Shown here piece by piece: positions 7,896-60,787 of a DNA stretch of 64,000 nucleotides. Below the pieces are notes generated by a model. It was given only the letters and a program-made list of their open reading frames with translations. It was not told where the DNA came from and did not search any database. The DNA is from Escherichia coli (GTDB taxonomy: Bacteria > Pseudomonadota > Gammaproteobacteria > Enterobacterales > Enterobacteriaceae). The stretch lies in assembly GCF_044324875.1 (NCBI RefSeq), contig NZ_CP172187.1; one strand, 5' to 3'. How positions within the stretch are numbered: position 1 is the first letter of the stretch; every line of letters begins with the position of its first letter. Both the position numbers and the translations under genes were made by a program.

Positions 7896-8148
7896 TCCCG
7901 AAACTCAACGGGTGATGTTCTTTAAAAATCAGGATTTATTTCAGGCTCCGGCAATACGCATTTATGTGTTCTGTCAGTCATCCGGCTGGCAGGTAATGAG
8001 AACGCAGGAACAGAAGGAGGAAAACACCGGAGAACGTCAGACGCAGATATGAAAAAAGCAGGCCGGGGAGGACCTGCTTAATCCACACCGCAAAAACTGT
8101 TCGAGCAGTTTCTGCGGTTCCATTCAACAGTCATAAGGAGTTTCATTT

Positions 8149-8379
8149 ATGACGGTAAGTATTGTTTCACCTTCCGCAGCGGCTGTAAAGCCCCGCCGTC
8201 ATCCCCGTTTCAGACGCGAAGACATCCCCGCGCCGGAAATTGACCCCGTGCTGAAAGCCTTCGGGCGACACATAGCCCGGAGTTTTCACCGGGGGCGTGG
8301 TGTACACATCCCCGCCATGAAAAACACGGCCTTCGGGCAGGTGCTCCGCACACTCGAACTGAAACGCGCTTTTAACTGA
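8149..8379 (+). CDS. Hypothetical small basic protein (76 aa)
   Basis: ORF downstream of repeat B copy 1 with RBS AGGAG. Confidence 0.4.
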   Translation: MTVSIVSPSAAAVKPRRHPRFRREDIPAPEIDPVLKAFGRHIARSFHRGRGVHIPAMKNTAFGQVLRTLELKRAFN

Positions 8380-11347: not shown

Positions 11348-11960
11348 GTGCGCCGTTGAAGCGCGGTGTTTTATGGAGTGTTGCCTGAAAAGCAACATGG
11401 CTTAGTGGTATAGCCATTGCATACTGTGGTTAGCCTTGCTTGGTAACAGGCTCGGAGATCCTGAAAAGGAGAGGTGAACATAGCATCCACAGAAAAGGGT
11501 GGTGAATATGGAAATCGTTATAAGTATCACCATTCAATGCAAGATGTATATGGATAAACTGGGTTTGTTGAAGTCGAGATCTATGTGGGAAACAGGAAAC
11601 CAATAACGCAGAACGATTGAAGCGTTATTCCCGTACTAGCACAAGAAATCCGTCCGACGTTGATTGTGACCACTCTAACGGGCCAGCTATTGATGAAATA
11701 GTTAAACGATCGAAAGACATCCTAAGTACATCGCATCTCCACACCGTGAAACTACGGGACTACCTAAACTGGATTTATACCCAGCATGGTAGCGGAGTCT
11801 CCATAGTACTCAAGGTCGGCCTGTAATGGGTTCCGGCAGTCCGCATTATACGGAAGCAGCAAAGGTATAAATCAACCGGAAGGAAGATGAAAGCCTCACA
11901 GTGCTGCGGGGAAGGGAGACAGTTGTTAGATACATCAATCTCTAAGAGGAGGGTTAGCCA

Positions 11961-13862
11961 ATGCTGCCTGATGAACTTGAGAAAAGATTAGATGGAATTG
12001 AGGATGCTTCAAAAAAAGGGTATCCAGTACGTAATCTATACAAAATTGCGTGTGAGCCCGGACTGTGGCTGCAAGCCTACGTGAATATACGGGCCAATGC
12101 AGGTGCACTGACTCAAGGTGTATCAACAGATACCATTGATGGCTTTTCTATCGAAAGAGCAGAGAAGCTGGCAAAAACATTGCGGAGTAGAGAATACGTA
12201 GCGAAACCTGTACGCAGAGTTCAGATCCCAAAAAAGGACGGAAAAACCAGACCGCTGGGGATTCCAGGTGGAGACGATAAACTGGCGCAAGAAGTAGCAA
12301 GAATTATTCTGGAAAGGGTTTATGAACCAGTATTCTCTGAACACTCTCATGGATTCAGACCAAAACGTTCGTGTGAAACTGCGCTCAGATCTATTCGTCC
12401 AGTCTGGAACGGAGTTAAATGGATCGTGGATGTTGATATCAAAGGTTTCTTTGACAATATCCCCCACAAACTATTGCTGAATACACTGGCAGAGAAAATT
12501 AAGGATAAGAATTTCCTGAAATTAATCGAACAGTGGCTGAAGGCAGGATATGTGGACAATTGGAAATACCATCGCTCATATTCTGGCACGCCACAAGGTG
12601 GGATAATTTCTCCCTTACTGGCAAATATATACCTCGACAAACTGGACCGTTTTGTAGAACAGAATTTAATTCCTGCATATACAAGCGGTACAAAACGAAG
12701 AGCGAATCCAGATATGAACAGGCTGGCCCATAAGATTCATAAACTACGAAAGAAAGTAGACGGTATGGCAACTGATTCTGAATCAGAAAAAGAAGCCATA
12801 AAGAAAGAAATTGAACGACTGCTTGAAGAAAAACGTTCTATACCATCTCAGGTCATGAACGATCCAAACTTCAGGCGTATGTACTATGTTCGATATGCTG
12901 ATGACTTCGTAATCGGTGTCATCGGCTCGAAGAAAGATGCTGAACATATATCAAGACAGGTCAGAAACTTTATTACTACTTCACTGGGATTGGAAGTTAA
13001 TGAAGCAAAGACCAGGATCCGCCATATCTCAGAAGGAGTTAATTTTTTAGGCTATGAAATCAGACAGGCAGATGCAAAGAAATTGCTGAAGCAGAAAATG
13101 CAAGGGCGGCACGCTCTCCGGAGATCCACCACAGGAATTGTGCAGCTCTTCGTTCCTGACAATATAGCCGCTAAATTTTGTCACCAAAAGAAATATGGCT
13201 GTTATGAGAATGTGAAGGCTGTACATCGTTCAAGTCTACAAAATCTCAGTGAAGCTGAAATTGTTCTGACTTTCAACGCGGAAATGCGCGGATTGGCGAA
13301 CTACTACAGTCTGGCGCTGGACATGAAATATAAATTATCAAAATTATATTTCATATGGCAAATAAGCCTTTTTAAGACCCTGGCGAATAAACGACGTAGT
13401 TCAGTGAATAAAGTCGCCAAATCGCTACGGCAAAATAATGGAGATCTGGCTATTACCGTTCAGGCCAAAAATGGATCCCGAAAGATTGAGGTTTTCAAAC
13501 TCAAACATGTCAATCGCAACCGAACAACGATTGTCGATACGGAACCGAGAACCGCACATATCACAACCCGCACAACAGAGATCATGCGTCGATTAGGGGC
13601 AAGGATCTGCGAGTATTGTGCGAAGACTGGGCGCTGCGAAGTACATCATGTCAGAAAGCTAAAAGACCTGAAGAAAGGTCGTAAGGCCGGATATAAACCC
13701 AGCTTGTGGCAACTAATGATGATCGCACGCCGCCGGAAAACGATGATTTTGTGCGCAAGTTGCCACGACAAGTTACATAGCGGAAAACTACCCGATTTGA
13801 GACAGGAAAAGGGAAGAATACTCCTGCAACCACCTGTCTCAAGCGGGGATTCTGCTAAATGA
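11961..13862 (+). CDS. Group II intron-encoded protein: reverse transcriptase, maturase (X) and HNH endonuclease domains
   Basis: 633 aa with RT motifs (LGIPGGDDKLAQE, SHGFRPKRSCETAL, FFDNIPH, GTPQGGIISPLLANIYL, YVRYADDFVIGV) and a C-terminal Cys/His HNH-like cluster (CEYCAKTGRCEVHHV...CASCHDKLH). Confidence 0.9.
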   Translation: MLPDELEKRLDGIEDASKKGYPVRNLYKIACEPGLWLQAYVNIRANAGALTQGVSTDTIDGFSIERAEKLAKTLRSREYVAKPVRRVQIPKKDGKTRPLGIPGGDDKLAQEVARIILERVYEPVFSEHSHGFRPKRSCETALRSIRPVWNGVKWIVDVDIKGFFDNIPHKLLLNTLAEKIKDKNFLKLIEQWLKAGYVDNWKYHRSYSGTPQGGIISPLLANIYLDKLDRFVEQNLIPAYTSGTKRRANPDMNRLAHKIHKLRKKVDGMATDSESEKEAIKKEIERLLEEKRSIPSQVMNDPNFRRMYYVRYADDFVIGVIGSKKDAEHISRQVRNFITTSLGLEVNEAKTRIRHISEGVNFLGYEIRQADAKKLLKQKMQGRHALRRSTTGIVQLFVPDNIAAKFCHQKKYGCYENVKAVHRSSLQNLSEAEIVLTFNAEMRGLANYYSLALDMKYKLSKLYFIWQISLFKTLANKRRSSVNKVAKSLRQNNGDLAITVQAKNGSRKIEVFKLKHVNRNRTTIVDTEPRTAHITTRTTEIMRRLGARICEYCAKTGRCEVHHVRKLKDLKKGRKAGYKPSLWQLMMIARRRKTMILCASCHDKLHSGKLPDLRQEKGRILLQPPVSSGDSAK

Positions 13863-13888
13863 GTTTATCCCCAATAAGCTAGCAATGG

Positions 13889-13926
13889 AGAGCCGTATGC
13901 ACTGAAAGGTGCACGTACGGTTCGGA
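13889..13926 (+). ncRNA. Group II intron domain V (catalytic hairpin)
   Basis: Matches the conserved domain V consensus as I recall it (GAGCCGUAUGC...GCACGUACGGUUC), about 80 nt from the 3' splice site. Confidence 0.7.
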
Positions 13927-14008
13927 GGGGGGGTAACGGTGATCTAACTCAAGATAAGCAGGACATATTCGCCATTTATCTTGAAAGACCACACGTACCC
14001 TACCCTAC

Positions 14009-18012: not shown

Positions 18013-18199
18013 TGCGGCAACAATCACACGGATTTCCCGTGAACGGTCTGAATGAGCGGATTATTTTCAGGGAAAGTGAGTGTGGTCAGCGTGCAGGTAT
18101 ATGGGCTATGATGTGCCCGGCGCTTGAGGCTTTCTGCCTCATGACGTGAAGGTGGTTTGTTGCCGTGTTGTGTGGCAGAAAGAAGATAGCCCCGTAGTA

Positions 18200-18270
18200 A
18201 GTTAATTTTCATTAACCACCACGAGGCATCCCTATGTCTAGTCCACATCAGGATAGCCTCTTACCGCGCT
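18200..18270 (-). ncRNA. sok: Sok-type antisense RNA of the hok/mok/sok locus; approximate position
   Basis: Placed by analogy with type I hok/sok systems, where the antisense overlaps the mok start region; exact ends not determinable by eye. Confidence 0.35.
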
Positions 18271-18446
18271 TTGCGCAAGGAGAAGAAGGCCATGAAACTA
18301 CCACGAAGTTCCCTTGTCTGGTGTGTGTTGATCGTGTGTCTCACACTGTTGATATTCACTTATCTGACACGAAAATCGCTGTGCGAGATTCGTTACAGAG
18401 ACGGACACAGGGAGGTGGCGGCTTTCATGGCTTACGAATCCGGTAA
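18234..18446 (+). CDS. mok: Mok/FlmC-like overlapping reading frame that couples hok translation
   Basis: 70-aa ORF overlapping hok in a different frame. Confidence 0.55.
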
Positions 18447-21469: not shown

Positions 21470-21830
21470 TGGTGGTTCTCACCACCAAAAGCACCACACA
21501 CTACGCAAAAACAAGTTTTTGCTGATTTGCCACTTGAATCATTAACTTATGTTTTAAATAATGTATTTTAATTTATTTTACATTATAAAAAGGATTCATT
21601 GGTGAATCGCATATGATTCACCAATGAATTTAACACAACTCATAGATGAATCAGTAATAATAAAACAACGAGTTAAAGCGAATTGACTCTAGATTCAATT
21701 CGTGATGTGATTTGCTGCATGAATCGTAATTTTCGTAACTTGCGTCACGATTCGATTCATCGATGAATTGTCATTTTTTTATATGTGAAATAAATTTGAT
21801 GCGATAAGAAAATAAAGAGGTATACATATG
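21470..21830. other. oriT region; predicted nic site on the minus strand at about 21495/21496
   Basis: Minus strand reads ...TTTTTGCGTAGTGTGT|GGTGCTTTTGGTGGTGAG, the F-like nic consensus as I recall it; AT-rich with multiple inverted repeats (e.g. 21590-21630, 21690-21770) in the expected TraM/IHF/TraY binding zone upstream of traM. Confidence 0.7.
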
Positions 21831-22211
21831 GCGAAAGTGCAGGCTTATGTCAGTGACGAAATTGTCTATAAAATAAATAAAATTGTGGAAAGAAGACGTG
21901 CAGAAGGAGCTAAAAGTACAGATGTAAGTTTCTCAAGCATATCCACTATGCTTCTCGAATTAGGGCTTCGTGTATATGAGGCTCAGATGGAGCGTAAAGA
22001 GTCAGCGTTCAATCAGGCTGAGTTTAATAAGGTGCTTCTTGAATGTGCGGTAAAAACACAGTCAACAGTTGCTAAGATTTTAGGTATTGAGTCACTAAGC
22101 CCTCATGTTTCCGGGAATCCAAAGTTTGAATATGCGAATATGGTCGAAGATATCAGGGAGAAGGTGTCATCTGAGATGGAGAGGTTCTTTCCAGAAAATG
22201 ATGAGGATTAA
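21828..22211 (+). CDS. traM: TraM, relaxosome accessory protein
   Basis: 127 aa beginning MAKVQAYVSDEIVYKINKIVERRR. Confidence 0.9.
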   Translation: MAKVQAYVSDEIVYKINKIVERRRAEGAKSTDVSFSSISTMLLELGLRVYEAQMERKESAFNQAEFNKVLLECAVKTQSTVAKILGIESLSPHVSGNPKFEYANMVEDIREKVSSEMERFFPENDED

Positions 22212-22334
22212 AAAAGAATTAAAAGTTGATTTGCTTCAAATAACAGGATTTTGATCTGGTTCAATTTGATGACAATTAACCGCATAAAGGTTATATTAAT
22301 TACGTGGTTAATGCCACGTTAAAAATTGAAACTG

Positions 22335-22415
22335 AAAATCGCCGATGCAGGGAGTTCAGACCTCCCTGCATCGACTGTCCATAGAATCCTTAACGGAGGT
22401 TCCTATGTGTGCGCT
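22335..22415 (-). ncRNA. finP: FinP antisense RNA (approximate)
   Basis: Two stem-loops in the traJ leader: hairpin 22341-22378 and a second hairpin at about 22381-22410 whose loop holds the traJ Shine-Dalgarno (AACGGAGG) and whose stem holds the start codon. Confidence 0.5.
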
Positions 22416-23091
22416 GGATCGTAGAGAAAGGCCACTTAACAGTCAATCTGTAAATAAATACATCCTTAACGTTCAGAATATCTACAGAAATTCTCCCGTT
22501 CCGGTTTGTGTCCGTAACAAAAACCGGAAAATCCTTTATGCCAATGGGGCTTTTATTGAACTCTTTTCCAGAGAAGATAAACCCTTATCCGGAGAGAGTT
22601 ATATACGTCTGCAGGTTGAAATTTTTCTTTCATCACTTGAACTGGAATGCCAGGCTCTTGGACATGGCTCTGCATTTTGTCGTCGTTTTAATTTTCATGG
22701 CGAAATCTATCAGATAAGGATGGAGAATGTTTCTTTTTATAATGACGAATCTGTTGTTTTATGGCAAATTAATCCGTTTCCTGATTATCCATTTTTTGCG
22801 TTAAATCAGAGTGGAAGTAATACAAATACTTCTGATAAATTAACGATATGGAATGATCTTTCTCCAGGGACATTGGTTGTTTTCTCTTTTTATATGCTGG
22901 GTGTTGGTCACGCAACAATTGCCAGAGAGTTGGGTATTACAGACAGAGCATCTGAGGATCGAATTAAACCAGTTAAACGGAAAATAAAAGAATTTTTTGA
23001 ACACTTTGATTTATTCAGAGTGTCATGTATCTATAAAGGAGAAATAGATTCGCTATTAAGTATAATTCGTGAATTTTATAGTATTAAGTAA
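22405..23091 (+). CDS. traJ: TraJ, tra operon activator
   Basis: ORF-track frame 22345..23091; ATG at 22405 follows GGAGG and gives an [10 protein letters not shown]... start. Confidence 0.8.
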
Positions 23092-23102
23092 ATGTTAAAT
23101 AA

Positions 23103-23130
23103 GGCACGCCAATTTTGGCGTGTTTTTTTT
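23103..23130 (+). terminator. Rho-independent terminator after traJ
   Basis: Hairpin CACGCCAA/TTGGCGTG followed by T8. Confidence 0.7.
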
Positions 23131-23184
23131 CGTCGGTTTCTGTGCAATCATGATTTTATTAGTCAGGAAACAGAGGTGAATTGA

Positions 23185-23412
23185 GTGAGGAGGCGTAACG
23201 CGAGAGGCGGGATAAGCAGAACAGTCTCAGTGTATCTCGATGAAGATACAAATAACCGACTTATTCGGGCCAAAGATCGTAGCGGTAGAAGTAAAACTAT
23301 AGAGGTTCAGATCCGTCTCAGAGATCATCTGAAACGGTTTCCTGATTTCTATAATGAAGAAATATTCAGGGAGGTGATCGAAGAGAACGAGTCAACATTT
23401 AAAGAACTTTAG
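23185..23412 (+). CDS. traY: TraY, relaxosome accessory protein (short R100-type)
   Basis: 75-aa ORF with a non-ATG start, in the canonical position. Confidence 0.75.
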   Translation: MRRRNARGGISRTVSVYLDEDTNNRLIRAKDRSGRSKTIEVQIRLRDHLKRFPDFYNEEIFREVIEENESTFKEL

Positions 23413-43614: not shown

Positions 43615-46433
43615 ATGAAGTTTATGTGATTGCCGGTGGTGAGTGGTTGCGGAATAACCTGAATGCCATTGCCGCCTTTATGGGAACCAGAACGTGGGAT
43701 TCCATTGAAAAAATTGCGCTCACATTGTCTGTTCTCGCGGTGGCCGTAATGTGGGTACAGCGGCACAACGTGATGGATTTGCTGGGCTGGGTGGCCGTGT
43801 TTGTGCTTATCAGCCTGCTGGTTAATGTCCGTACATCGGTGCAGATTATTGATAACAGTGACCTGGTCAAAGTTCACCGGGTGGATAATGTGCCGGTCGG
43901 ACTGGCGATGCCACTTTCACTGACGACCCGTATCGGGCATGCAATGGTGGCCAGTTACGAGATGATCTTCACGCAACCGGACAGTGTCACCTACAGCAAA
44001 ACGGGGATGCTGTTTGGCGCAGAACTGGTATCAAAAAGCACCGACTTTTTGTCCCGTAATCCGGAAATCGCCAATCTTTTCCAGGATTATGTGCAGAACT
44101 GCGTGATGGGGGATATTTACCTGAACCACAAATATACGCTGGAGGAGCTGATGGCCTCCGCTGATCCCTACACGCTGATTTTTTCCCGCCCCAGCCCGCT
44201 GCGGGGCGTTTATGACAGCAATAATAATTTCGTAACCTGTAAGGACGCTTCGGTTTCGCTGAAAGACAAGCTGAATCTGGACACACAGAGTGGCGGAAAA
44301 ACCTGGCATTATTATGCCCAGCAGCTATTTGGCGGACGCCCTGATCCTAACCTGCTGTTCAGTACGCTGATTGGCGACAGTTACAGTTACTTCTATGGCT
44401 CAAGTAAATCAGCCAGCCAGATCATCCGCCAGAATGTCACCATCAATGCGCTGAAGGAGGGGATCACCAGTTATGCCGCACGTAATGGTGATTCGGCCAG
44501 CCTGGTGAATCTGGCCACCACGTCATCGATGGAGAAACAACGTCTGGCACATGTATCAATCGGTCATGTGGCGATGCGGACACTGCCCATGACGCAGACC
44601 ATCCTGACGGGGATCGCCATCGGTATTTTCCCGCTCCTGGTACTGGCGGCTGTATTCAACAAACTGACGCTGTCCGTCCTGAAAGGCTATGTGTTTGCCC
44701 TGATGTGGTTGCAGTCATGGCCAATGTTGTACGCCATTCTGAACAGCGCCATGACATTTTATGCAAAGCAGAATGGTGCACCGGTGGTGCTCTCGGAAAT
44801 TTCACAGATACAGCTGAAATACTCCGATCTGGCTTCCACTGCCGGGTATCTTTCCATGATGATCCCGCCATTATCCTGGATGATGGTCAGGGGGCTCGGG
44901 GCAGGATTTTCCAGTGTGTACAGCCATTTCGCTTCCTCTGCTATCAGCCCGACCGCCAGTGCAGCAGGCAGTGTGGTTGACGGTAATTACTCCTACGGCA
45001 ACATGCAGACGGAGAACGTGAACGGCTTCAGCTGGAGCACCAACAGCACCACGTCGTTTGGTCAGATGATGTACCAGACCGGCAGTGGCGCAACTGCCAC
45101 ACAGACCCGTGACGGTAATATGGTGATGGATGCAAGCGGAGCGATGTCCCGGTTACCGGTCGGCATCAATGCAACGCGTCAGATTGCGGCGGCACAACAG
45201 GAAATGGCCCGGGAAGCATCGAACAGAGCAGAAAGTGCCCTGCATGGGTTCAGCAGCAGTATTGCCAGTGCCTGGAACACGCTCAGTCAGTTTGGTTCTA
45301 ACCGGGGGAGCAGTGATTCTGTCACCGGTGGCGCTGACAGTACGATGAGCGCACAGGACTCCATGATGGCCAGCCGTATGCGCAGTGCAGTGGAAAGCTA
45401 TGCGAAGGCGCATAATATCAGTAATGAGCAGGCGACTCAGGAACTGGCATCCAGAAGTACGAGAGCTTCTGCCGGGATGTATGGAGATGCTCATGCTGAA
45501 TGGGGGGTTAAACCTAAAATTCTTGGTGTTGGTGGAGGATTAGGTGTTAAAGGTGGTGGTCGCGCTGGTATTGATTGGGAAGATAATGATGCGCATACGG
45601 CAAGTAGTAATACTCAGTCGAGCCATAATGCTCGTCATGATATCGATGCCAGAGCTACACAAGACTTTAAAGAGGCCAGCGATTACTTTACCAGTCGCAA
45701 GGTCAGTGAGTCCGGCAGCCATACTGACAATAATGCTGATTCCCGTGTGGATCAGTTGTCTGCAGCCCTGAACTCAGCAAAACAGAGTTACGACCAGTTC
45801 ACGACGAATATGACCCGCAGCCATGAATATGCTGAAATGGCATCCCGTACTGAAAGCATGAGTGGGCAGATGAGTGAAGACCTGTCGCAACAGTTTGCAC
45901 AGTATGTGATGAAACACGCGCCGCAGGATGCCGAAGCTATTCTGACAAACACCAGTTCACCGGAGATTGCAGAACGCCGTCGGGCTATGGCGTGGTCTTT
46001 TGTTCAGGAACAGGTGCAGCCTGGTGTTGATAATGCCTGGCGTGAATCCCGTGGGGACATCGGTAAAGGAATGGAGAGCGTACCTTCGGGTGGTGGCAGC
46101 CAGGATATTATTGCTGATCATCAGGGGCATCAGGCCATTATTGAGCAAAGAACGCAGGACAGTAATATCCGTAATGATGTAAAACATCAGGTTGATAATA
46201 TGGTCACAGAATACCGAGGCAATATCGGAGATACTCAGAGCAGCATACGTGGCGAAGAAAATATTGTAGGAAGACAGTATTCTGAACTACAAAATCACCA
46301 TAAAACAGAGGCATTATCTCAGAATAATAAATATAATGAAGAAAAATCGGGTCAGGAAAGAATGCCCGGGGCTGACAGTCCACAGGAACTGATGAAAAGA
46401 GCAAAGGAGTATCAGGATAAGCACAAGCAATAA
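43611..46433 (+). CDS. traG: TraG, mating-pair stabilisation and entry-exclusion determinant
   Basis: 940-aa polytopic membrane protein. Confidence 0.9.
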   Translation: MNEVYVIAGGEWLRNNLNAIAAFMGTRTWDSIEKIALTLSVLAVAVMWVQRHNVMDLLGWVAVFVLISLLVNVRTSVQIIDNSDLVKVHRVDNVPVGLAMPLSLTTRIGHAMVASYEMIFTQPDSVTYSKTGMLFGAELVSKSTDFLSRNPEIANLFQDYVQNCVMGDIYLNHKYTLEELMASADPYTLIFSRPSPLRGVYDSNNNFVTCKDASVSLKDKLNLDTQSGGKTWHYYAQQLFGGRPDPNLLFSTLIGDSYSYFYGSSKSASQIIRQNVTINALKEGITSYAARNGDSASLVNLATTSSMEKQRLAHVSIGHVAMRTLPMTQTILTGIAIGIFPLLVLAAVFNKLTLSVLKGYVFALMWLQSWPMLYAILNSAMTFYAKQNGAPVVLSEISQIQLKYSDLASTAGYLSMMIPPLSWMMVRGLGAGFSSVYSHFASSAISPTASAAGSVVDGNYSYGNMQTENVNGFSWSTNSTTSFGQMMYQTGSGATATQTRDGNMVMDASGAMSRLPVGINATRQIAAAQQEMAREASNRAESALHGFSSSIASAWNTLSQFGSNRGSSDSVTGGADSTMSAQDSMMASRMRSAVESYAKAHNISNEQATQELASRSTRASAGMYGDAHAEWGVKPKILGVGGGLGVKGGGRAGIDWEDNDAHTASSNTQSSHNARHDIDARATQDFKEASDYFTSRKVSESGSHTDNNADSRVDQLSAALNSAKQSYDQFTTNMTRSHEYAEMASRTESMSGQMSEDLSQQFAQYVMKHAPQDAEAILTNTSSPEIAERRRAMAWSFVQEQVQPGVDNAWRESRGDIGKGMESVPSGGGSQDIIADHQGHQAIIEQRTQDSNIRNDVKHQVDNMVTEYRGNIGDTQSSIRGEENIVGRQYSELQNHHKTEALSQNNKYNEEKSGQERMPGADSPQELMKRAKEYQDKHKQ

Positions 46434-47915: not shown

Positions 47916-48704
47916 ATGACATCAGACAATATCGCTGAATATGTTGGTGAGAATAATCAATTTACTGAGAAGCCTGTAACTGAATACCCCCCGGTGATAC
48001 AGGATAATACAGTGACCACTAAAGACTATCTGTACAGCAATAATATTGATACTGACCTTTTAGTGGTTATCGGAGGGCTTATTGTTATATTGTTTCTCAT
48101 GATGCTTATCATGTACTTTATTAATTCTCTCAGGCATAAGGAATTAACTGAAATACTGACAAAAATATCTTTTCCTGAAAAATCCGGGAGCAATTCGCTT
48201 AAACCGGAAGCGGTCAGCTGTAATTTGTTGTCCCTGTGTGTGCTGGCACCGGTATTCTGTACACCCAAAAAGCTGGCTGAAGTTTCCAGGGAGATCATCG
48301 TGGCGAGTGCGCAGGAGATTGCATGGACGCCGGGGAGCAGTCGTATTGATGGTCATCAGGGCGAAAATATTACCTGGTCTCTGTCGTCACAGTCTCATGC
48401 CGATAAATACGAGCTCATCAATAAAACGTCCCGTGTTTCTCCTGACAGTGGCCGTTTTTATGAACCGGACACAGTTCTGGATCACCGTGAACGGGTACGC
48501 CTTTTTATTCAGATCCAGTTTCCGCATGGGAGTGACTGGTCTGAAGTATTGCGCCTGACTGACATTGTTGCAGAGAAGGTCTCTTCCGGCAGGACTGCAG
48601 GTGCGTATTCCGCTCTATTCGATCACGGATTGGCATCGAAGTCCGATCAGCGATTCGCATCCATTCGATCAACCGGGAACTTAACTTTTTCTACCGCTTT
48701 TTAA
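47916..48704 (+). CDS. Hypothetical single-pass membrane protein (262 aa) inserted between traT and traD; 3' end runs into the IS terminal repeats
   Basis: ORF-track frame 47850..48704; ATG at 47916; TM helix LLVVIGGLIVILFLMMLIMYFI; the last ~30 codons overlap the IS21-type terminal repeats beginning at about 48602. Confidence 0.5.
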   Translation: MTSDNIAEYVGENNQFTEKPVTEYPPVIQDNTVTTKDYLYSNNIDTDLLVVIGGLIVILFLMMLIMYFINSLRHKELTEILTKISFPEKSGSNSLKPEAVSCNLLSLCVLAPVFCTPKKLAEVSREIIVASAQEIAWTPGSSRIDGHQGENITWSLSSQSHADKYELINKTSRVSPDSGRFYEPDTVLDHRERVRLFIQIQFPHGSDWSEVLRLTDIVAEKVSSGRTAGAYSALFDHGLASKSDQRFASIRSTGNLTFSTAF

Positions 48705-49456
48705 CGCGTTTTTTCGCTGCTTTCCACTACCGGGGGATTTTTCCTCAGTGACTCTCCCTGAAGGACCACTCGGTGTGAGTTATGTACCAGTCTGTCCAGG
48801 ATGGCATCTGCTGTTGTTGGGTTCTCCATCAGACCATGCCATTTATCTACCGGGAACTGGCTTACCACTATCGTGCTGCTTTGTCCGTAACGATCCTCTA
48901 TGAGCTCCAGAAGGTCATTACACTGGGCGTTACTTAACTGTTCCAGCCCCAGATCGTCCAGGATTAGAACCTGTATTTTTTGCAACTGTTTCAGATATTT
49001 CAGCCAGCTGCCATCAACACGTCCCTGAGCCAGTTGTTCCAGTAATCGCCCGGTTCTACAGTACCGGACGCTGTGTTTCTGTCGACATGCCTGTTCGCCC
49101 AGCGCATTGGCTATCCAGCTCTTGCCACATCCTGTCGGACCGGTTATCAGCAGGTTTTTCCTGTGGGTTATGTAGTGGCCGTTCAGCAGTTCTCTCATCT
49201 GTTCAGCCCGCAGACCTCTTGAGGCCGGATAGCGCAGCCCTTCCGGTGTTGCCTGGTATTTCAGGCCGGCATTTTTTCTCAACCGTGCCACACGGCTGTT
49301 TTCCCTGCTCAGAAGCTCGTCATCAACCAGCAGCGTCAGCCTTTCCTCGAACGACAGTTCGTCGTAGGTCTGAGGCGTTTCCCGCTGCCGTATCAGGCTC
49401 CCGGCCATCGCCGGGAGTTTCAGTTGGGTCAGTTTGTTTAACAGGTTATCACTCAT
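48701..49456 (-). CDS. istB: IstB-like AAA+ ATPase transposition helper
   Basis: ORF-track frame 48701..49699; internal start MSDNLL...; Walker A GPTGCGKSW and Walker B LILDDLG. Confidence 0.8.
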   Translation of the reverse strand: MSDNLLNKLTQLKLPAMAGSLIRQRETPQTYDELSFEERLTLLVDDELLSRENSRVARLRKNAGLKYQATPEGLRYPASRGLRAEQMRELLNGHYITHRKNLLITGPTGCGKSWIANALGEQACRQKHSVRYCRTGRLLEQLAQGRVDGSWLKYLKQLQKIQVLILDDLGLEQLSNAQCNDLLELIEDRYGQSSTIVVSQFPVDKWHGLMENPTTADAILDRLVHNSHRVVLQGESLRKNPPVVESSEKTR

Positions 49457-49472
49457 ACTGTTGTTCCTTCTG

Positions 49473-51119
49473 TCAGTGGTAGTAGCCCGGACCACGCAGG
49501 TTTTCATGCTCTGAAGCATATGCCGGATGTTGTTCGCCCTGGCGGGATAATGGAAGCTCCAGGTTCTCCCGATGGTGACGCAGCAGATTGTCGATAAAGC
49601 GTCTGTCAGGGGCGTTATAGTGCAGGGCAACGTAACAGGCCTTTTCCAGCCGTTCCGGGCCGTATTTTTTCTGAAGTGCCAGCAGCCCCAGAACTGCACG
49701 ATAAGCCAGTTCCGGATGGGGTTTTGCCTTCAGCATGGATTCAACCACCCGGCCTGTGGACGGGCCCGTACGTTTTCCCTGCTCGATCAGGCGTTCCGGT
49801 GTCCATGTCCCGTGCTGCCGGTGGCGCTCTGGCATGTGAAGCGGATTGGTTGTGTGTTTATATTCATGTGTGCTGCGCGGATGTTGCGCCACACACTGCC
49901 CCTTGTGCCAGAGCTGTACCACCGACTGCCCCGCCTTCAGTGACAGACGCTGACCGACCAGTTCGTGTGGAACGGAGTACCAGTGACGGGCATATTCAAC
50001 GTGGTAGTCAGGGCCAACCTTCACAGCTTTGTATTCCGTGTATTCATAAGGTGCCAGAGGCAGCGGAGAGAGTGCTGGCGCATCCAGTATGCGGAAGCGT
50101 TCTGCACGGGTTTGATTGCCGTACCCCTTCATTGGCCGGTTATTCATGTCTGTCAGTAACTCCCTAAGGCGCGCATTCAGCGCCCTGAGCGTGTGGAAGG
50201 TTTCATTACGGATGCGGGCAAGAAGCCATCGTTCAACGATGAGGACGCCGTTTTCTGCTTTTGGTTTATCTTTAGGTTTGCGTGGTCGGGCCGGGATGAT
50301 AACCGTGCCATAGTGCTCAGCCAGTGCCTGATAACTGTCGTTGATGACAGGCTCATATCGATCGGCCTTTTTCACTGCGCTTCTGAGGTTATCGGGGATG
50401 AGCAGCTTCGGTACGCCGCCCAGGAAGGTCAGGCAACGGCTGTGGGCATTTAACCATGACATCATGTCCTGACCTTCGCACGCTTCAACGTAGGTATAGT
50501 TGGACGCCCCCATTACGGCCACGAAGATTGCCACGCGGCGTATCTCACCGGTGTCCGGATTAATAACAGGAACCGTAGGACCACAGAAGTCGATAAAAAG
50601 CTTTTCGCCGGCACGATGCTCCTGGCGCATGGAGAGACGTCGCGTTTTTTTCCACTCCCGGTAGCAACGGCAGAAGTGCGAGTATCCCATCGCTTTGTTA
50701 CCCGCCTGTGCCTTGTATTCCATCCACAACAGTTGCCGCGTCACACCTGGTTTTCTCATTTCCGTATCGAAGTACAACATGTCAGGCATTACAAGCTCTG
50801 ATGCAAAGGTGTCTTTGGGCGGAAAAATGAGTTTCTCCAGCGTGTCATGGGATATATCAGCAGGTAATGGCCATGACAGAGAAGAGGCTTTGAAGCGGGC
50901 AAGAACCTCAAAAACGGTTGAGGCGCTGATGTGTAACGTCAGTCCGATACAACGGTTAGTCAGCTTCTTGTCGAACTTGAGCTGAAGGATCTTAAAACAG
51001 GTTTCCATAGTGCTCCTGGATTTTCTCTTTCTGGACATTGACGTCTCCACTGGTTTAAACACGGCAATGGAGACTGTGGTGAAAAGAGTTAATTCCCGGA
51101 GTGACTGGCAGGATGCCAA
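49473..51119 (-). CDS. istA: IstA-like transposase (start uncertain)
   Basis: 548-aa ORF whose 3' end overlaps istB; HTH-like N-terminus; two-gene arrangement diagnostic of the IS21 family. Confidence 0.75.
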   Translation of the reverse strand: MASCQSLRELTLFTTVSIAVFKPVETSMSRKRKSRSTMETCFKILQLKFDKKLTNRCIGLTLHISASTVFEVLARFKASSLSWPLPADISHDTLEKLIFPPKDTFASELVMPDMLYFDTEMRKPGVTRQLLWMEYKAQAGNKAMGYSHFCRCYREWKKTRRLSMRQEHRAGEKLFIDFCGPTVPVINPDTGEIRRVAIFVAVMGASNYTYVEACEGQDMMSWLNAHSRCLTFLGGVPKLLIPDNLRSAVKKADRYEPVINDSYQALAEHYGTVIIPARPRKPKDKPKAENGVLIVERWLLARIRNETFHTLRALNARLRELLTDMNNRPMKGYGNQTRAERFRILDAPALSPLPLAPYEYTEYKAVKVGPDYHVEYARHWYSVPHELVGQRLSLKAGQSVVQLWHKGQCVAQHPRSTHEYKHTTNPLHMPERHRQHGTWTPERLIEQGKRTGPSTGRVVESMLKAKPHPELAYRAVLGLLALQKKYGPERLEKACYVALHYNAPDRRFIDNLLRHHRENLELPLSRQGEQHPAYASEHENLRGPGYYH

Positions 51120-51347
51120 TCAATGATCGGAAGCATGCCAAATCGTGATCGATTGTGATGCCAAACTGTGATCGGAGATGGATGCCAAATCATGATCGAT
51201 TCGAATGCCAAACTGCGATCGATTCAGATGCCATTTTGCAGCAGGCGGGTATCACCACCGGCATACAGGGTACACCTGGTCTGTTTCTGTGAATTAACCC
51301 CACATCATCCTTTTCTGCCCTGTTCCAGATTTTCCCGGAGTTTCATC

Positions 51348-53546
51348 ATGAGTTTTAACGCAAAGGATATGACCCAGGGCGGTCAGATTGCGTCCATGCG
51401 TATCCGCATGTTCAGCCAGATCGCCAATATCATGCTTTACTGCCTGTTTATTTTTTTCTGGATACTCGTTGGTCTGGTTTTATGGGTAAAAATAAGCTGG
51501 CAGACGTTTGTGAACGGCTGTATTTACTGGTGGTGTACCACGCTGGAAGGCATGCGGGATTTAATCAAGTCCCAGCCAGTATATGAGATTCAGTATTACG
51601 GCAAAACCTTCCGGATGAACGCTGCCCAGGTACTGCATGATAAATATATGATCTGGTGCGGTGAGCAGCTATGGTCCGCATTCGTTCTGGCGTCTGTCGT
51701 GGCCCTGGTTATTTGCCTGATCACCTTCTTTGTTGTCTCCTGGATTCTGGGGCGTCAGGGTAAACAACAGAGCGAAAATGAAGTCACAGGTGGTCGTCAG
51801 CTGACAGACAATCCGAAAGACGTTGCCCGGATGCTGAAAAAAGACGGCAAGGACTCCGATATCCGGATTGGCGACCTGCCGATTATCCGGGATTCCGAAA
51901 TCCAGAACTTCTGTCTGCACGGCACGGTCGGGGCCGGTAAGTCGGAGGTTATCCGTCGTCTGGCCAACTACGCCCGTCAGCGCGGTGATATGGTGGTGAT
52001 TTATGACCGTTCAGGGGAATTTGTTAAAAGTTACTATGATCCCTCCATCGATAAAATCCTGAATCCGCTGGATGCCCGCTGTGCCGCATGGGATTTGTGG
52101 AAGGAGTGCCTGACACAGCCGGATTTTGATAATACCGCAAATACTCTGATCCCTATGGGTACAAAAGAGGACCCGTTCTGGCAGGGTTCAGGACGTACCA
52201 TTTTTGCGGAAGCGGCGTACCTGATGCGTAATGACCCCAACCGCAGCTACAGCAAACTGGTGGACACACTGCTTTCCATCAAAATTGAAAAACTGCGTAC
52301 CTTCCTGCGTAATTCACCGGCAGCCAACCTGGTGGAAGAGAAAATTGAGAAAACGGCGATTTCCATCCGTGCTGTGCTGACCAACTACGTGAAAGCCATC
52401 CGTTACCTGCAGGGGATTGAGCATAACGGTGAGTCTTTTACCATCCGTGACTGGATGCGTGGTGTCCGGGAAGATCAGAAAAACGGCTGGCTGTTTATCT
52501 CGTCGAATGCCGACACCCATGCCTCCCTGAAGCCGGTGATCTCCATGTGGCTGTCCATTGCCATTCGTGGTCTGCTGGCAATGGGAGAAAACCGTAACCG
52601 TCGTGTGTGGTTTTTCTGTGACGAGTTACCCACGTTACACAAACTGCCGGACCTGGTGGAGATCCTGCCGGAAGCCCGTAAGTTCGGAGGCTGTTATGTG
52701 TTTGGTATCCAGTCCTATGCCCAGCTGGAAGATATCTACGGTGAGAAAGCGGCGGCCACGCTGTTTGACGTCATGAACACCCGTGCTTTTTTCCGTTCCC
52801 CGAGCCATAAGATTGCAGAGTTCGCTGCCGGTGAGATTGGTGAGAAAGAGCACCTGAAAGCCAGCGAGCAGTATTCCTACGGTGCTGACCCGGTACGTGA
52901 CGGGGTATCGACCGGTAAGGATATGGAGCGTCAGACACTGGTCAGTTATTCCGACATTCAGTCTCTGCCGGATCTGACCTGCTATGTCACTCTGCCCGGA
53001 CCGTATCCGGCAGTAAAACTCTCCCTGAAATATCAGGCACGACCGAAGGTCGCTCCGGAGTTTATTCCGCGTGACATCAACCCGGAAATGGAGAACCGTC
53101 TGAGTGCCGTACTTGCTGCAAGGGAAGCAGAAGGTCGCCAGATGGCCAGCCTCTTCGAACCGGAGGTTGCCTCCGGAGAAGGCGTGACTCAGGCTGAACA
53201 GCCACAACAGCCACAACAGCCACAACAGCCACAACAGCCACAACAGCCACAACAGCCACAACAGCCAGTGTCTTCTGTCATGAATGATAAGAAGTCAGAT
53301 GCAGGTGTGAGTGTTCCGGCAGGGGGGATCGAGCAGGAGCTGAAAATGAAACCGGAAGAAGAGATGGAACAGCAACTGCCACCCGGGATCAGTGAATCCG
53401 GTGAAGTGGTGGATATGGCCGCTTATGAGGCATGGCAACAGGAAAATCATCCGGACATCCAGCAGCAGATGCAGCGTCGTGAAGAGGTGAACATTAATGT
53501 GCACCGGGAGCGCGGGGAGGATGTTGAGCCGGGAGATGATTTCTGA
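51348..53546 (+). CDS. traD: TraD, type IV coupling protein
   Basis: ORF-track frame 51168..53546; true start [22 protein letters not shown] at 51348; Walker A GTVGAGKS; matches F TraD from memory. Confidence 0.95.
53199..53261 (+). repeat. 9-bp tandem repeat (CAGCCACAA)x7 encoding the TraD C-terminal (QQP)n tract
   Basis: Counted directly in the sequence. Confidence 0.9.
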
Positions 53547-56500
53547 TGTTGAGTTTTAGCGTTGTTAAATCGGCAGGCAGTGCCGGAAACTATTACACCG
53601 ACAAGGATAATTACTATGTGCTGGGTAGCATGGGAGAACGCTGGGCCGGTCAGGGGGCTGAACAGCTTGGGCTGCAGGGCAGCGTCGATAAGGATGTTTT
53701 TACCCGTCTTCTGGAGGGCAGGCTGCCGGACGGGGCGGATTTAAGCCGCATGCAGGATGGCAGTAATAAGCATCGTCCCGGCTACGACCTGACCTTCTCC
53801 GCCCCCAAAAGTGTCTCCATGATGGCCATGCTCGGGGGGGATAAACGTCTTATTGATGCACATAACCAGGCTGTGGATTTTGCTGTCCGTCAGGTGGAGG
53901 CGCTGGCTTCCACACGGGTGATGACGGACGGACAGTCAGAAACGGTGCTGACCGGTAATCTGGTGATGGCACTGTTTAACCATGACACCAGTCGCGATCA
54001 GGACCCACAGTTACACACGCATGTGGTGGTGGCTAATGTCACGCAGCATAACGGCGAGTGGAAGACACTGAGCAGTGACAAAGTGGGGAAAACCGGATTT
54101 TCCGAGAACGTGCTCGCGAACCGGATTGCGTTCGGGAAAATATATCAGAGTGAGTTACGTCAGCGCGTTGAGGCGCTGGGTTATGAAACCGAAGTGGTCG
54201 GTAAGCACGGTATGTGGGAGATGCCGGGCGTACCGGTGGAGGCCTTTTCCGGACGCTCACAGGCTATCCGGGAGGCCGTCGGGGAAGATGCCTCGCTGAA
54301 ATCCCGGGATGTGGCGGCACTGGATACGCGAAAATCCAAACAGCACGTCGATCCGGAAATCAGAATGGCTGAATGGATGCAGACGCTGAAGGAAACCGGG
54401 TTCGACATCCGGGCATATCGTGACGCGGCGGATCAGCGTGCGGAGACCCGCACGCAGGCGCCCGGGGCTGTTTCACAGGAGGGGCCGGATGTGCAGCAGG
54501 CGGTGACACAGGCCATTGCCGGATTAAGTGAACGAAAAGTGCAGTTCACGTATACGGACGTGCTGGCCAGGACGGTCGGCATACTGCCGCCGGAAAATGG
54601 TGTGATTGAACGGGCACGCGCCGGTATCGATGAGGCCATCAGCCGTGAGCAGCTTGTCCCCCTCGATCGTGAGAAGGGGCTGTTCACGTCCGGGATTCAT
54701 GTGCTCGATGAGCTGTCAGTCCGGGCACTCAGTCGTGACATCATGAAACAGAACCGGGTGACCGTACATCCGGAGAAAAGTGTCCCCCGGACGGCCGGTT
54801 ACAGCGATGCCGTCAGTGTTCTGGCACAGGATCGCCCGTCGCTGGCCATTGTGTCCGGGCAGGGCGGTGCAGCCGGGCAGCGTGAGCGGGTGGCTGAACT
54901 GGTCATGATGGCCCGGGAGCAGGGGCGGGAGGTGCAGATTATCGCTGCTGACCGTCGCTCGCAGATGAACCTGAAGCAGGATGAACGGCTGTCCGGTGAG
55001 CTGATAACCGGACGTCGTCAGCTGCAGGAGGGCATGGTCTTCACGCCGGGCAGTACCGTTATCGTTGACCAGGGCGAAAAACTCTCCCTGAAAGAGACGT
55101 TAACCCTGCTGGACGGTGCCGCACGTCATAACGTACAGGTCCTGATAACCGACAGCGGGCAGCGAACCGGTACAGGCAGTGCGCTGATGGCCATGAAGGA
55201 TGCCGGGGTGAACACGTATCGCTGGCAGGGCGGAGAACAGCGACCGGCCACCATCATCAGTGAACCGGACCGGAATGTCCGCTATGACCGGCTGGCCGGA
55301 GATTTTGCGGCCAGCGTGAAAGCCGGAGAAGAGAGCGTGGCACAGGTCAGCGGGGTACGGGAACAGGCCATACTGACACAGGCCATTCGCAGTGAGCTGA
55401 AAACACAGGGCGTGCTCGGACACCCGGAGGTGACCATGACCGCCCTGTCACCGGTCTGGCTGGACAGCCGGAGCCGTTATCTGCGGGATATGTACCGACC
55501 GGGGATGGTGATGGAGCAGTGGAACCCGGAGACACGCAGTCATGACCGCTATGTTATCGACCGGGTGACGGCGCAGAGTCACAGCCTGACCCTGCGGGAT
55601 GCGCAGGGCGAAACGCAGGTGGTGCGTATTTCCTCCCTGGACAGCAGCTGGTCGCTGTTCCGGCCGGAAAAAATGCCGGTGGCAGACGGCGAGCGACTGA
55701 GGGTGACAGGGAAAATTCCCGGACTCCGCGTCTCCGGCGGTGACCGCCTGCAGGTGGCATCCGTCAGTGAAGATGCGATGACGGTTGTTGTGCCGGGGCG
55801 GGCTGAACCGGCCACCCTGCCTGTGGCTGATTCACCGTTCACGGCACTGAAGCTGGAGAACGGCTGGGTGGAAACGCCCGGGCATTCCGTCAGCGACAGT
55901 GCGAAGGTTTTTGCCTCCGTCACACAGATGGCAATGGACAACGCCACCCTGAACGGTCTGGCCCGCAGTGGTCGTGATGTCCGGCTGTATTCTTCACTGG
56001 ATGAAACCCGTACTGCGGAAAAACTTGCCCGCCATCCCTCCTTTACGGTGGTTTCTGAGCAGATAAAGGCGCGTGCCGGTGAGACATTGCTGGAAACCGC
56101 TATCAGTCTGCAGAAAGCCGGGCTTCACACGCCGGCACAGCAGGCTATTCATCTGGCCCTTCCTGTGCTGGAAAGTAAAAACCTGGCCTTCAGCATGGTG
56201 GACCTGCTGACAGAGGCGAAGTCGTTTGCTGCAGAAGGAACCAGTTTTACTGAACTGGGAGGGGAAATCAATGCGCAGATAAAACGCGGTGATTTACTGT
56301 ATGTGGATGTGGCAAAAGGCTATGGCACAGGCCTGCTGGTTTCCCGTGCGTCGTATGAGGCAGAAAAGAGCATTCTTCGCCATATTCTCGAAGGTAAGGA
56401 GGCGGTCACGCCGCTGATGGAGAGAGTACCTGGCGAACTCATGGAGAAACTGACATCAGGACAGCGTGCCGCCACCCGCATGATACTGGAAACGTCCGAC

Positions 56501-58816
56501 CGTTTCACGGTGGTGCAGGGCTATGCCGGTGTGGGTAAGACCACACAGTTCCGGGCGGTGATGTCAGCCGTGAACATGCTGCCGGAGAGTGAGCGTCCCC
56601 GTGTCGTTGGGCTGGGTCCCACGCACCGCGCGGTCGGGGAGATGCGCAGCGCCGGCGTGGATGCACAGACACTGGCGTCCTTTCTGCATGACACGCAGCT
56701 GCAGCAGCGCAGCGGAGAAACGCCGGATTTCAGCAACACGCTGTTCCTGCTCGATGAGAGCTCAATGGTGGGCAATACCGACATGGCACGGGCATACGCC
56801 CTGATTGCGGCCGGTGGCGGTCGTGCTGTGGCCAGCGGTGACACGGACCAGCTGCAGGCCATCGCGCCCGGTCAGCCTTTCCGTCTCCAGCAGACGCGCA
56901 GTGCTGCCGATGTGGTCATCATGAAGGAGATTGTGCGTCAGACGCCGGAACTGCGGGAGGCGGTATACAGCCTGATTAACCGGGATGTGGAAAGGGCACT
57001 GTCCGGGCTTGAGAGTGTGAAACCGTCTCAGGTTCCCCGTCAGGAGGGCGCATGGGCACCGGAGCACTCCGTGACGGAGTTCAGTCACAGCCAGGAAGCG
57101 AAACTGGCAGAAGCGCAGCAGAAGGCGATGCTGAAAGGCGAGGCTTTCCCGGATATCCCCATGACACTGTATGAAGCCATTGTCCGCGACTATACCGGCA
57201 GGACACCGGAAGCACGGGAGCAGACGCTGATTGTCACACACCTGAATGAGGACCGGCGCGTACTGAACAGCATGATTCATGATGCACGGGAAAAGGCCGG
57301 TGAGCTGGGCAAAGAGCAGGTCATGGTGCCTGTCCTGAACACAGCGAATATACGTGACGGAGAACTGCGTCGTCTCTCCACCTGGGAGAATAACCCGGAT
57401 GCCCTTGCCCTGGTGGATAGTGTGTATCACCGGATTGCCGGTATCAGCAAGGATGACGGGCTGATAACCCTGCAGGATGCGGAAGGTAACACGCGGCTGA
57501 TTTCGCCCCGGGAGGCGGTGGCTGAAGGCGTCACACTGTACACCCCGGACACCATCCGGGTGGGAACCGGTGACCGGATGCGCTTCACGAAGAGTGACCG
57601 GGAGCGCGGTTATGTGGCCAACAGCGTCTGGACGGTGACAGCGGTTTTAGGTGACAGTGTCACGTTGTCGGACGGACAGCAGACCCGGGTGATTCGCCCC
57701 GGTCAGGAGCGGGCAGAGCAACATATTGACCTGGCTTATGCCATCACCGCCCACGGTGCGCAGGGGGCAAGTGAAACCTTTGCCATCGCGCTTGAAGGCA
57801 CGGAAGGTAACCGGAAACTGATGGCAGGCTTTGAGTCAGCTTATGTAGCCCTGTCGCGTATGAAGCAGCATGTGCAGGTGTACACCGATAACCGTCAGGG
57901 CTGGACGGATGCCATCAACAATGCCGTACAGAAAGGAACTGCCCACGATGTGTTTGAACCGAAACCGGACCGGGAGGTCATGAATGCAGAGCGGCTGTTC
58001 AGTACGGCGCGGGAGCTGCGGGACGTGGCGGCAGGCCGTGCCGTTCTTCGTCAGGCGGGACTTGCCGGGGGAGACAGTCCTGCACGGTTTATTGCTCCGG
58101 GACGTAAATATCCGCAACCGTATGTGGCACTGCCGGCTTTTGACCGTAACGGCAGGTCCGCCGGTATCTGGCTGAACCCGCTGACCACGGATGACGGAAA
58201 CGGGCTGCGGGGATTCAGCGGTGAAGGCCGGGTGAAAGGCAGCGGGGATGCACAGTTTGTGGCCCTGCAGGGCAGCCGTAACGGAGAGAGCCTGCTGGCT
58301 GATAATATGCAGGATGGTGTCCGGATTGCCCGTGATAATCCTGACAGCGGTGTGGTGGTGAGAATCGCCGGTGAAGGCCGTCCGTGGAATCCCGGTGCCA
58401 TCACCGGTGGTCGCGTGTGGGGGGATATCCCGGACAACAGCGTCCAGCCGGGGGCCGGAAATGGTGAACCGGTTACAGCTGAAGTGCTGGCACAGCGGCA
58501 GGCTGAAGAGGCCATCCGCCGTGAAACGGAACGTCGCGCAGATGAAATTGTCCGTAAAATGGCAGAGAACAAACCTGACCTGCCGGATGGCAGAACAGAG
58601 CAGGCTGTCAGGGAGATTGCCGGGCAGGAGCGTGACCGGGCTGCCATAACTGAACGGGAAGCCGCGCTGCCGGAGAGTGTGCTGCGTGAATCACAACGGG
58701 AGCGGGAAGCGGTCCGGGAGGTTGCCCGGGAAAATCTGCTGCAGGAGCGTCTGCAGCAGATGGAGCGGGATATGGTCCGTGACCTGCAGAAAGAGAAAAC
58801 CCTGGGCGGAGACTGA
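53546..58816 (+). CDS. traI: TraI, relaxase-helicase
   Basis: 1756 aa; start overlaps the traD stop; matches F TraI from memory. Confidence 0.95.
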   Translation: MLSFSVVKSAGSAGNYYTDKDNYYVLGSMGERWAGQGAEQLGLQGSVDKDVFTRLLEGRLPDGADLSRMQDGSNKHRPGYDLTFSAPKSVSMMAMLGGDKRLIDAHNQAVDFAVRQVEALASTRVMTDGQSETVLTGNLVMALFNHDTSRDQDPQLHTHVVVANVTQHNGEWKTLSSDKVGKTGFSENVLANRIAFGKIYQSELRQRVEALGYETEVVGKHGMWEMPGVPVEAFSGRSQAIREAVGEDASLKSRDVAALDTRKSKQHVDPEIRMAEWMQTLKETGFDIRAYRDAADQRAETRTQAPGAVSQEGPDVQQAVTQAIAGLSERKVQFTYTDVLARTVGILPPENGVIERARAGIDEAISREQLVPLDREKGLFTSGIHVLDELSVRALSRDIMKQNRVTVHPEKSVPRTAGYSDAVSVLAQDRPSLAIVSGQGGAAGQRERVAELVMMAREQGREVQIIAADRRSQMNLKQDERLSGELITGRRQLQEGMVFTPGSTVIVDQGEKLSLKETLTLLDGAARHNVQVLITDSGQRTGTGSALMAMKDAGVNTYRWQGGEQRPATIISEPDRNVRYDRLAGDFAASVKAGEESVAQVSGVREQAILTQAIRSELKTQGVLGHPEVTMTALSPVWLDSRSRYLRDMYRPGMVMEQWNPETRSHDRYVIDRVTAQSHSLTLRDAQGETQVVRISSLDSSWSLFRPEKMPVADGERLRVTGKIPGLRVSGGDRLQVASVSEDAMTVVVPGRAEPATLPVADSPFTALKLENGWVETPGHSVSDSAKVFASVTQMAMDNATLNGLARSGRDVRLYSSLDETRTAEKLARHPSFTVVSEQIKARAGETLLETAISLQKAGLHTPAQQAIHLALPVLESKNLAFSMVDLLTEAKSFAAEGTSFTELGGEINAQIKRGDLLYVDVAKGYGTGLLVSRASYEAEKSILRHILEGKEAVTPLMERVPGELMEKLTSGQRAATRMILETSDRFTVVQGYAGVGKTTQFRAVMSAVNMLPESERPRVVGLGPTHRAVGEMRSAGVDAQTLASFLHDTQLQQRSGETPDFSNTLFLLDESSMVGNTDMARAYALIAAGGGRAVASGDTDQLQAIAPGQPFRLQQTRSAADVVIMKEIVRQTPELREAVYSLINRDVERALSGLESVKPSQVPRQEGAWAPEHSVTEFSHSQEAKLAEAQQKAMLKGEAFPDIPMTLYEAIVRDYTGRTPEAREQTLIVTHLNEDRRVLNSMIHDAREKAGELGKEQVMVPVLNTANIRDGELRRLSTWENNPDALALVDSVYHRIAGISKDDGLITLQDAEGNTRLISPREAVAEGVTLYTPDTIRVGTGDRMRFTKSDRERGYVANSVWTVTAVLGDSVTLSDGQQTRVIRPGQERAEQHIDLAYAITAHGAQGASETFAIALEGTEGNRKLMAGFESAYVALSRMKQHVQVYTDNRQGWTDAINNAVQKGTAHDVFEPKPDREVMNAERLFSTARELRDVAAGRAVLRQAGLAGGDSPARFIAPGRKYPQPYVALPAFDRNGRSAGIWLNPLTTDDGNGLRGFSGEGRVKGSGDAQFVALQGSRNGESLLADNMQDGVRIARDNPDSGVVVRIAGEGRPWNPGAITGGRVWGDIPDNSVQPGAGNGEPVTAEVLAQRQAEEAIRRETERRADEIVRKMAENKPDLPDGRTEQAVREIAGQERDRAAITEREAALPESVLRESQREREAVREVARENLLQERLQQMERDMVRDLQKEKTLGGD

Positions 58817-59582: not shown

Positions 59583-59636
59583 CGGGTGTGGTATCTTTGA
59601 CCGTAACAGGATGATTCGTCAGAGGCAGAACACAGC

Positions 59637-60540: not shown

Positions 60541-60787
60541 CGAAAAAGCAGCCTTCATTACTCCAGGGATTCAGAAGGCTGAATAATGCATGAGATTTGC
60601 TTTTTTTAATATCCGGTCGGGCAGTATGACCGGACAGTTCTGAGTAGCACAGAGTTTTTTCCGTATTAAGTCGTGATTTTATATTTTGTGATTAATTTCG
60701 CAAAATAAGGTGTTATTCAGTGTGTGCTGCGATATTCAGGATTACCTGAAATACAGGTGCCATTTATCTGATATGGAGAATAATATG

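Follow-up and report, generated by a model that had tools for sequence, protein, structure and literature searches.

The traJ leader and traJ gene at positions 22335-23091 of a 64,000-nucleotide stretch of Escherichia coli DNA (NZ_CP172187.1; "the window" hereafter refers to this entire stretch), taken together with the distal finO gene, very probably constitute the classical FinOP fertility-inhibition module of an F-like (MOBF12 group A) conjugative plasmid, a device that would repress transfer. The proposal of an earlier sequence-only reading that this circuit is intact finds support, at the level of the sequence, in a finP promoter-like site, the two stem-loops of the antisense RNA, the spacer between them, the 3' tail and a full-length finO. 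In the FinOP scheme, FinP pairs with the traJ leader, FinO stabilizes FinP and promotes this pairing, and the tra operon is thereby kept off (PMC9977716, PMC7690428, PMC5102898). For the plasmid considered here, expression, binding and the repressed phenotype are predicted by analogy with F, R1, R100 and pSLT.

There is nothing new in an intact FinOP system, which is very common and represents the default condition of natural F-like plasmids, F itself being the exception. In a survey of 256 MOBF12 plasmids all members of group A except F were finO+ (PMC5102898), and these finO+ plasmids transfer less than F (PMC5102898; PMC7690428), which exceeds R1, R100 or pSLT in transfer by two to three orders of magnitude (PMC5102898). 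Hence the identification has annotation value only: it leads one to expect that transfer is low in the steady state and surges in new transconjugants, a behavior relevant to the modelling of plasmid spread. The only new detail emerging from the present analysis is that one FinP hairpin loop exists naturally in two mirror-image orientations.

The finP antisense RNA and the traJ leader

The elements recognized on the two strands of the traJ leader are:
22269-22297, plus strand: traJ promoter-like site, ATGACA-17-TATATT (10/12 consensus matches), just upstream of the leader
22302-22410, plus strand: traJ 5' untranslated leader (Rfam RF00243)
22303-22318, plus strand: 5' hairpin of the leader
22343-22373, plus strand: SLIIc, with stems 22343-22354 and 22362-22373 and loop 22355-22361
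22380-22407, plus strand: SLIc
22395-22399, plus strand: traJ Shine-Dalgarno sequence GGAGG, 5 nt before the AUG, at the loop/stem border of SLIc
22405-23091, plus strand: traJ, encoding a 228-aa PAS-domain activator of the tra operon
22446-22418, minus strand: finP promoter-like site, TTGACT-17-TACGAT, within the first traJ codons and 7 nt upstream of the FinP 5' end
22335-22411, minus strand: finP antisense RNA gene, ~77 nt (Rfam RF00107)
22407-22380, minus strand: FinP SLI, 7+3 bp with a 6-nt loop
22379-22376, minus strand: FinP spacer GACA, 4 nt
22375-22341, minus strand: FinP SLII, 14 bp with a 7-nt loop at 22361-22355
22340-22335, minus strand: FinP 3' tail GAUUUU, 6 nt

Two stem-loops had been claimed for the traJ leader, and both were recovered at that place with scores above the Rfam cut-offs. 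The FinP covariance model RF00107 matched over positions 1-76 of 76 with 91.2 bits (gathering score 45), and the traJ leader model RF00243 over its full length, 1-109, with 118.3 bits (gathering score 50); the E-values of these full-length matches lie between 1e-18 and 1e-21. The minimum free energy (MFE) was -38.6 kcal/mol for the FinP strand (z = -5.2) and -31.6 kcal/mol for the traJ strand (z = -4.0), and on either strand the native sequence surpassed all 200 shuffled versions. The putative antisense RNA thus displays two stem-loops, a 4-nt spacer and a short single-stranded 3' tail; FinO requires such a tail of 5-6 nt on FinP (PMC9977716).

A consensus fold computed from seven alleles (those of the window, pRS218, a Salmonella plasmid, FORC_029p, F, R100 and a Klebsiella plasmid) yielded the same two hairpins, SLI and SLII, with five compensatory pairs in SLII and loops that vary. 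These observations bear on the reading that the hairpins are chance structures or a mere terminator, with no antisense RNA being made. SLII followed by GATTTT does score as a terminator-like site; against this stand the E-values and fold z-scores given above, the compensatory changes in the other alleles, and a conserved promoter-like site at the correct distance. We regard this reading as vanishingly improbable, and at the sequence level it is already refuted. In a Shigella flexneri plasmid, pA-10383 (NZ_CP130065.1), the finP/traJ-leader region at ~300-440 failed to align with the other alleles; an IS1 transposase gene lies after traJ in this plasmid, and either a FinP deletion or an offset in the chosen coordinates may explain the misalignment.

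On the minus strand, the finP promoter-like site shares its -10 hexamer, TACGAT, with F and differs from it by one base in the -35 hexamer (TTGACT versus TTGACG). A GATC (Dam) site at 22417-22420 overlaps the -10 hexamer, as it does in pSLT. In pSLT, Dam methylation reportedly controls finP transcription. On the plus strand, ~7 nt separate the promoter-like site assigned to traJ from the beginning of the Rfam traJ_5 match downstream of it.

As laid out here, finP would be transcribed from its own minus-strand promoter, starting at ~22411 within the second traJ codon, and its product would be an RNA of ~77 nt with two stem-loops that matches the traJ leader without a mismatch, ribosome-binding site and AUG included. 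In terms of coordinates, FinP (22411-22335) is antisense to the Shine-Dalgarno sequence at 22395-22399, the AUG at 22405-22407 and the first codons. The assertion that the start codon is held in the stem of the second hairpin agrees with the predicted fold, in which the AUG pairs within the outer stem of SLIc. The companion assertion, that the Shine-Dalgarno sequence sits in the loop, does not hold as worded and applies only to one or two of its bases: when the FinP SLI is mirrored onto the plus strand, two bases of GGAGG belong to the 6-nt loop and the other three to the stem, whereas in the MFE fold a single base is in the loop. The traJ start used throughout is the ATG at 22405, which follows GGAGG by 5 nt and matches the annotation of identical plasmids; for these reasons it was preferred to the start at 22345 given by a mechanical list of open reading frames.

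The traJ allele is not that of R100, since TraJ is only 24% identical to the R100 protein, and its identity with TraJ of F is 23%. It instead belongs to the pRS218/pAA-042 type: TraJ is 99% identical to that of pRS218, and versions with 97-100% identity were found in ~1336 plasmid records, among them pRS218, pAA of strain 042 and numerous plasmids of Klebsiella, the exact protein being present on 87 contigs. The exact 77-nt FinP sequence was found in 288 plasmid records.

Comparisons with characterized systems place the variation chiefly in the loops. F has the same architecture, and its SLII stem arms, GACA spacer and 3' tail are identical to those of the window, whereas its SLII loop in FinP reads UUCACGU as against GUCUGAA here, and the SLI loop is 2 nt shorter in the window than in F. 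R100/R6-5 encodes a two-hairpin FinP with the same outline, and in R100 the SLII stem repeat is imperfect and the loop has 6 nt. The Salmonella pSLT-like plasmids share the organization and nearly identical FinP stems, with one G-U change in SLII; their TraJ is 73% identical, and their loops (UGACAG in SLII, CCUCAA in SLI) are unlike those of the window. The closest counterparts, namely the pRS218-type plasmids and many Klebsiella IncF plasmids, have a TraJ that is 97-99% identical.

finO and the layout of the tra region

The window comprises the transfer region of an F-like plasmid, of which the following parts concern us here:
21828-22211: traM, first in the tra gene order
23185-23412: traY, after traJ and followed by traA, traL, traE and onward
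48602-51240, minus strand: IS21-family (ISSso4-like) element with istA and istB and ends TG...CA
51348-53546: traD, reading frame intact
53546-58816: traI, reading frame intact
58836-59582, plus strand: traX, reading frame intact, directly upstream of finO
59637-60197, plus strand: finO, 186 aa, full length, positioned beyond traI and traX at the tra operon's distal end

Its closest relative in PLSDB is pTB-nb3 (NZ_CP033634.1), a plasmid from chicken E. coli that is typed as conjugative, MOBF and MPF_F, and that is 100% identical to the window over positions 21000-45999. With traM, traJ, traY and finO, a full complement of MPF-F genes and a relaxase of the MOBF type, the plasmid corresponds to a classical F-like plasmid of MOBF12 group A as defined in PMC5102898, with the caveat of an insertion sequence upstream of traD.

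Several minor features were noted along the same stretch. At 23105-23130, 14 nt past the traJ stop and before traY, CACGCC-AAUU-GGCGUG with a run of eight U behind it constitutes a strong terminator-like hairpin. An Rfam match to FopS at 23069-23132, whose 31.6 bits fall short of the threshold of 56, was discarded as corresponding to this hairpin and its U8 run; FopS is an RNA family of Bacteroidetes and the match is spurious. In the leading region there is an insertion of ~2.6 kb relative to pTB-nb3, at ~11348-14008, whose end carries the catalytic domain of a group II intron (RF00029, 67.4 bits; Rfam match at 13888-14008, plus strand). Further RNAs scoring above the Rfam gathering scores are CopA of the IncFII replicon (63825-63916, minus), two sok antitoxin RNAs (18118-18294, plus; 62859-63015, plus), AS-traI (56395-56471, minus), AS-traG (44330-44415, minus), AS-pc02 (60437-60620, minus) and AS-pc01 (8053-8154, minus).

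That finO is full length, as had been claimed, is borne out by an uninterrupted open reading frame of 186 codons whose product contains both expected Pfam domains: FinO_N (PF12602; 133.7 bits, 2.1e-39) and ProQ/FinO (PF04352; 94.7 bits, 4.1e-27). It matched the crystallized FinO (PDB: 1DVO) with an E-value of 1.5e-95 and 148 of 152 residues identical (97%). Its identity with FinO of R100, likewise a protein of 186 aa, is also 97%, with six substitutions at positions 21, 54, 72, 160, 164 and 186. Residues cross-linked to RNA or critical for the chaperone activity of FinO have been mapped to Trp36, Lys46, Lys81, Arg121, Lys125, Arg165 and Lys176 (PMC3105414). All seven (the six RNA cross-linking positions and Trp36) are present in the protein encoded here, and none coincides with a position that differs from R100. 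The exact protein occurs on at least 1000 contigs, and a private defect in finP or finO was ruled out because the exact sequences of both are widespread.

The contrast that had been drawn with F, in which finO was said to be disrupted, was confirmed in NC_002483: finO of F is split after codon 132 by 1258 bp carrying an IS3 transposase gene, so that FinO residues 1-132 and 132-186 are encoded in different frames on either side of it, whereas finO of the window is whole. The two remnants in F are 98% identical to the window gene, and their spacing from traX is the same.

With these components in place, FinO, the product of a gene 37 kb distant that closes the tra operon, would bind the base of SLII and the 3' tail of FinP, shield FinP from RNase E and speed up its pairing with traJ mRNA. 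This pairing would begin as a loop-loop contact, proceed to cover the ribosome-binding site and block the synthesis of TraJ; without TraJ the main tra promoter, PY, would stay silent, most established donors would be devoid of pili and transfer would be rare. A fresh transconjugant, by the same scheme, would transfer efficiently until FinO and FinP had accumulated.

Two alternatives to efficient repression by FinOP

The gene order around finO opens the question of how strongly an intact module would act. Between the traX stop at 59582 and the finO start at 59637 there are only 54 bp (59583-59636), whereas R100 has at this place orf286, an alpha/beta-hydrolase gene of 286 codons and 861 bp. van Biesen and Frost (1992) reportedly found that orf286 raises finO mRNA and strengthens repression. 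Since orf286 is lacking upstream of finO, repression in the present plasmid may belong to a weaker class. Moreover, a simple scan of the plus strand for a sigma-70-like site detected none directly upstream of finO, and finO may therefore rely on transcription arriving from upstream.

That path leads across the IS21-family element. This element, ~2.6 kb in length, lies in the interval between traT and traD, leaving 102 bp to the traD ATG at 51348, and truncates a small hypothetical gene of 245 codons; it is flanked by a 5-bp target duplication, GCAGG, at 48597-48601 and 51241-51245, and is oriented against the tra operon. To reach traD, traI, traX and finO, transcription from PY has to pass through 2.6 kb of IS in antisense orientation. 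Terminator-like hairpins were detected within the element on the plus strand, whereas the 102 bp between it and traD yielded no promoter-like site. The insertion is missing from the nearest relatives, pTB-nb3 and pGZM7d both being IS-free, and neither PLSDB nor a set of 5426 complete E. coli genomes contained its junction with the tra region, so the event is recent and has not been exposed to the test of selection. The element may be polar on traD, traI, traX and finO, and finO expression might be affected.

These circumstances bear on two alternative readings. The first accepts that FinOP is intact in sequence and holds that repression is nonetheless weak, with FinO limiting, FinP short-lived, and traJ and the pilus genes partly derepressed. 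It draws on the F-type layout, with finO right after traX and a spacer that matches that of F, on the missing promoter-like site, and on an insertion sequence that may cut finO transcription. Yet the same traX-finO layout and FinO protein are found in thousands of natural plasmids that the literature describes as repressed. We consider weak repression rather unlikely.

The second alternative concerns the interpretation of a low transfer frequency, and we give it somewhat more credence, as a serious possibility that still falls short of an even chance. It states that transfer is low or absent through polarity of the insertion on traD and traI, whose products are the coupling protein and the relaxase respectively, and that FinOP would wrongly receive the credit. 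The well-defined insertion and target duplication, the placement of istA and istB on the strand opposing the operon, the lack of a promoter-like site in the 102 bp upstream of traD, and the absence of the insertion from all records searched are consistent with it; the intact reading frames of traD, traI and traX weigh against it. A further counterweight comes from F, where traD and traI reportedly have TraJ-independent internal promoters. Given the position of the element immediately ahead of traD and traI, infrequent transfer could not be taken as evidence specific to FinOP. The reading of the locus as an intact and repressing FinOP module nevertheless remains the one we favor.

Two orientations of the SLII loop

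In the course of comparing alleles we found that the SLII loop of the window, TTCAGAC on the plus strand, is the exact reverse complement of the loop GTCTGAA in pRS218 and a Klebsiella plasmid. Alignment of FinP from plasmids with the same TraJ allele shows no difference in the stems, SLI loop or promoter; the SLII loop differs. Exact matches numbered 288 records for the window-type loop versus 942 for the pRS218-type. Eleven 1-kb traJ regions of at least 99.3% identity provided flanking markers (T/A at 22208 and A/G at 23080) that agree in 10 of the 11. Both loop orientations occur on both marker haplotypes, and this distribution requires recurrent inversion or very short conversion tracts. 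The flip thus appears to have happened more than once.

A comparable situation was sought in other alleles. As a test, the F allele was rewritten in silico with its loop inverted, a change that alters all seven loop bases, before the search was run; this sequence retrieved eight exact records as compared with 316 for the native form. The flipped R100 allele retrieved none (best match 95.1%), as against 547 records for the native R100 form. The SLII stem repeat of R100 is broken by a mismatch into 5+6 bp, whereas that of the window is a perfect repeat of 12 bp. Three independent substitutions in the loop were rejected as an explanation: such a history is unparsimonious, given that the changes produce exactly the reverse complement, recur on two haplotypes and have a counterpart in the flipped F allele.

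On this basis we tentatively suggest that the 7-nt SLII loop, along with its counterpart in the traJ leader, is bounded by its 12-bp perfect inverted repeat and naturally invertible and that its inversion could give rise to a new FinP specificity in a single step. The flip retains both the complementarity of FinP and traJ in cis and the loop size of 7 nt, and 4 of the 7 loop bases can pair with an unflipped partner. The contacts of FinO are with the SLII base and the 3' tail rather than with the loop (PMC3105414), and loop size affects repression (PMC10470590). Regulation in cis should consequently be unaffected, in that the FinO contacts spare the loop and its size stays the same. In trans, however, recognition by FinP might change, because non-cognate loops pair at only those four positions. 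If so, a flip would amount to an escape from the fertility inhibition exerted by a related co-resident plasmid and, where it alters cross-repression, to a simple means by which resistance and virulence plasmids that circulate together could vary the specificity of their antisense RNAs. The literature searched, the coverage of which was incomplete, yielded no description of an inversion of the FinP SLII loop, and we offer the specificity switch as a lead and not as a result.

A change of loop size offers a different route to altered repression, as seen in pHNSHP24, which is derepressed by the mutation A51G that reduces the loop from 6 to 4 nt (PMC10470590). A mutation of this type does not apply to the present plasmid, since the loop has its full 7 nt in both orientations. 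Judging from the positions of the mutation, the 6-nt loop of pHNSHP24, A51 to C56, fits the R100-type loop AGCGAC.
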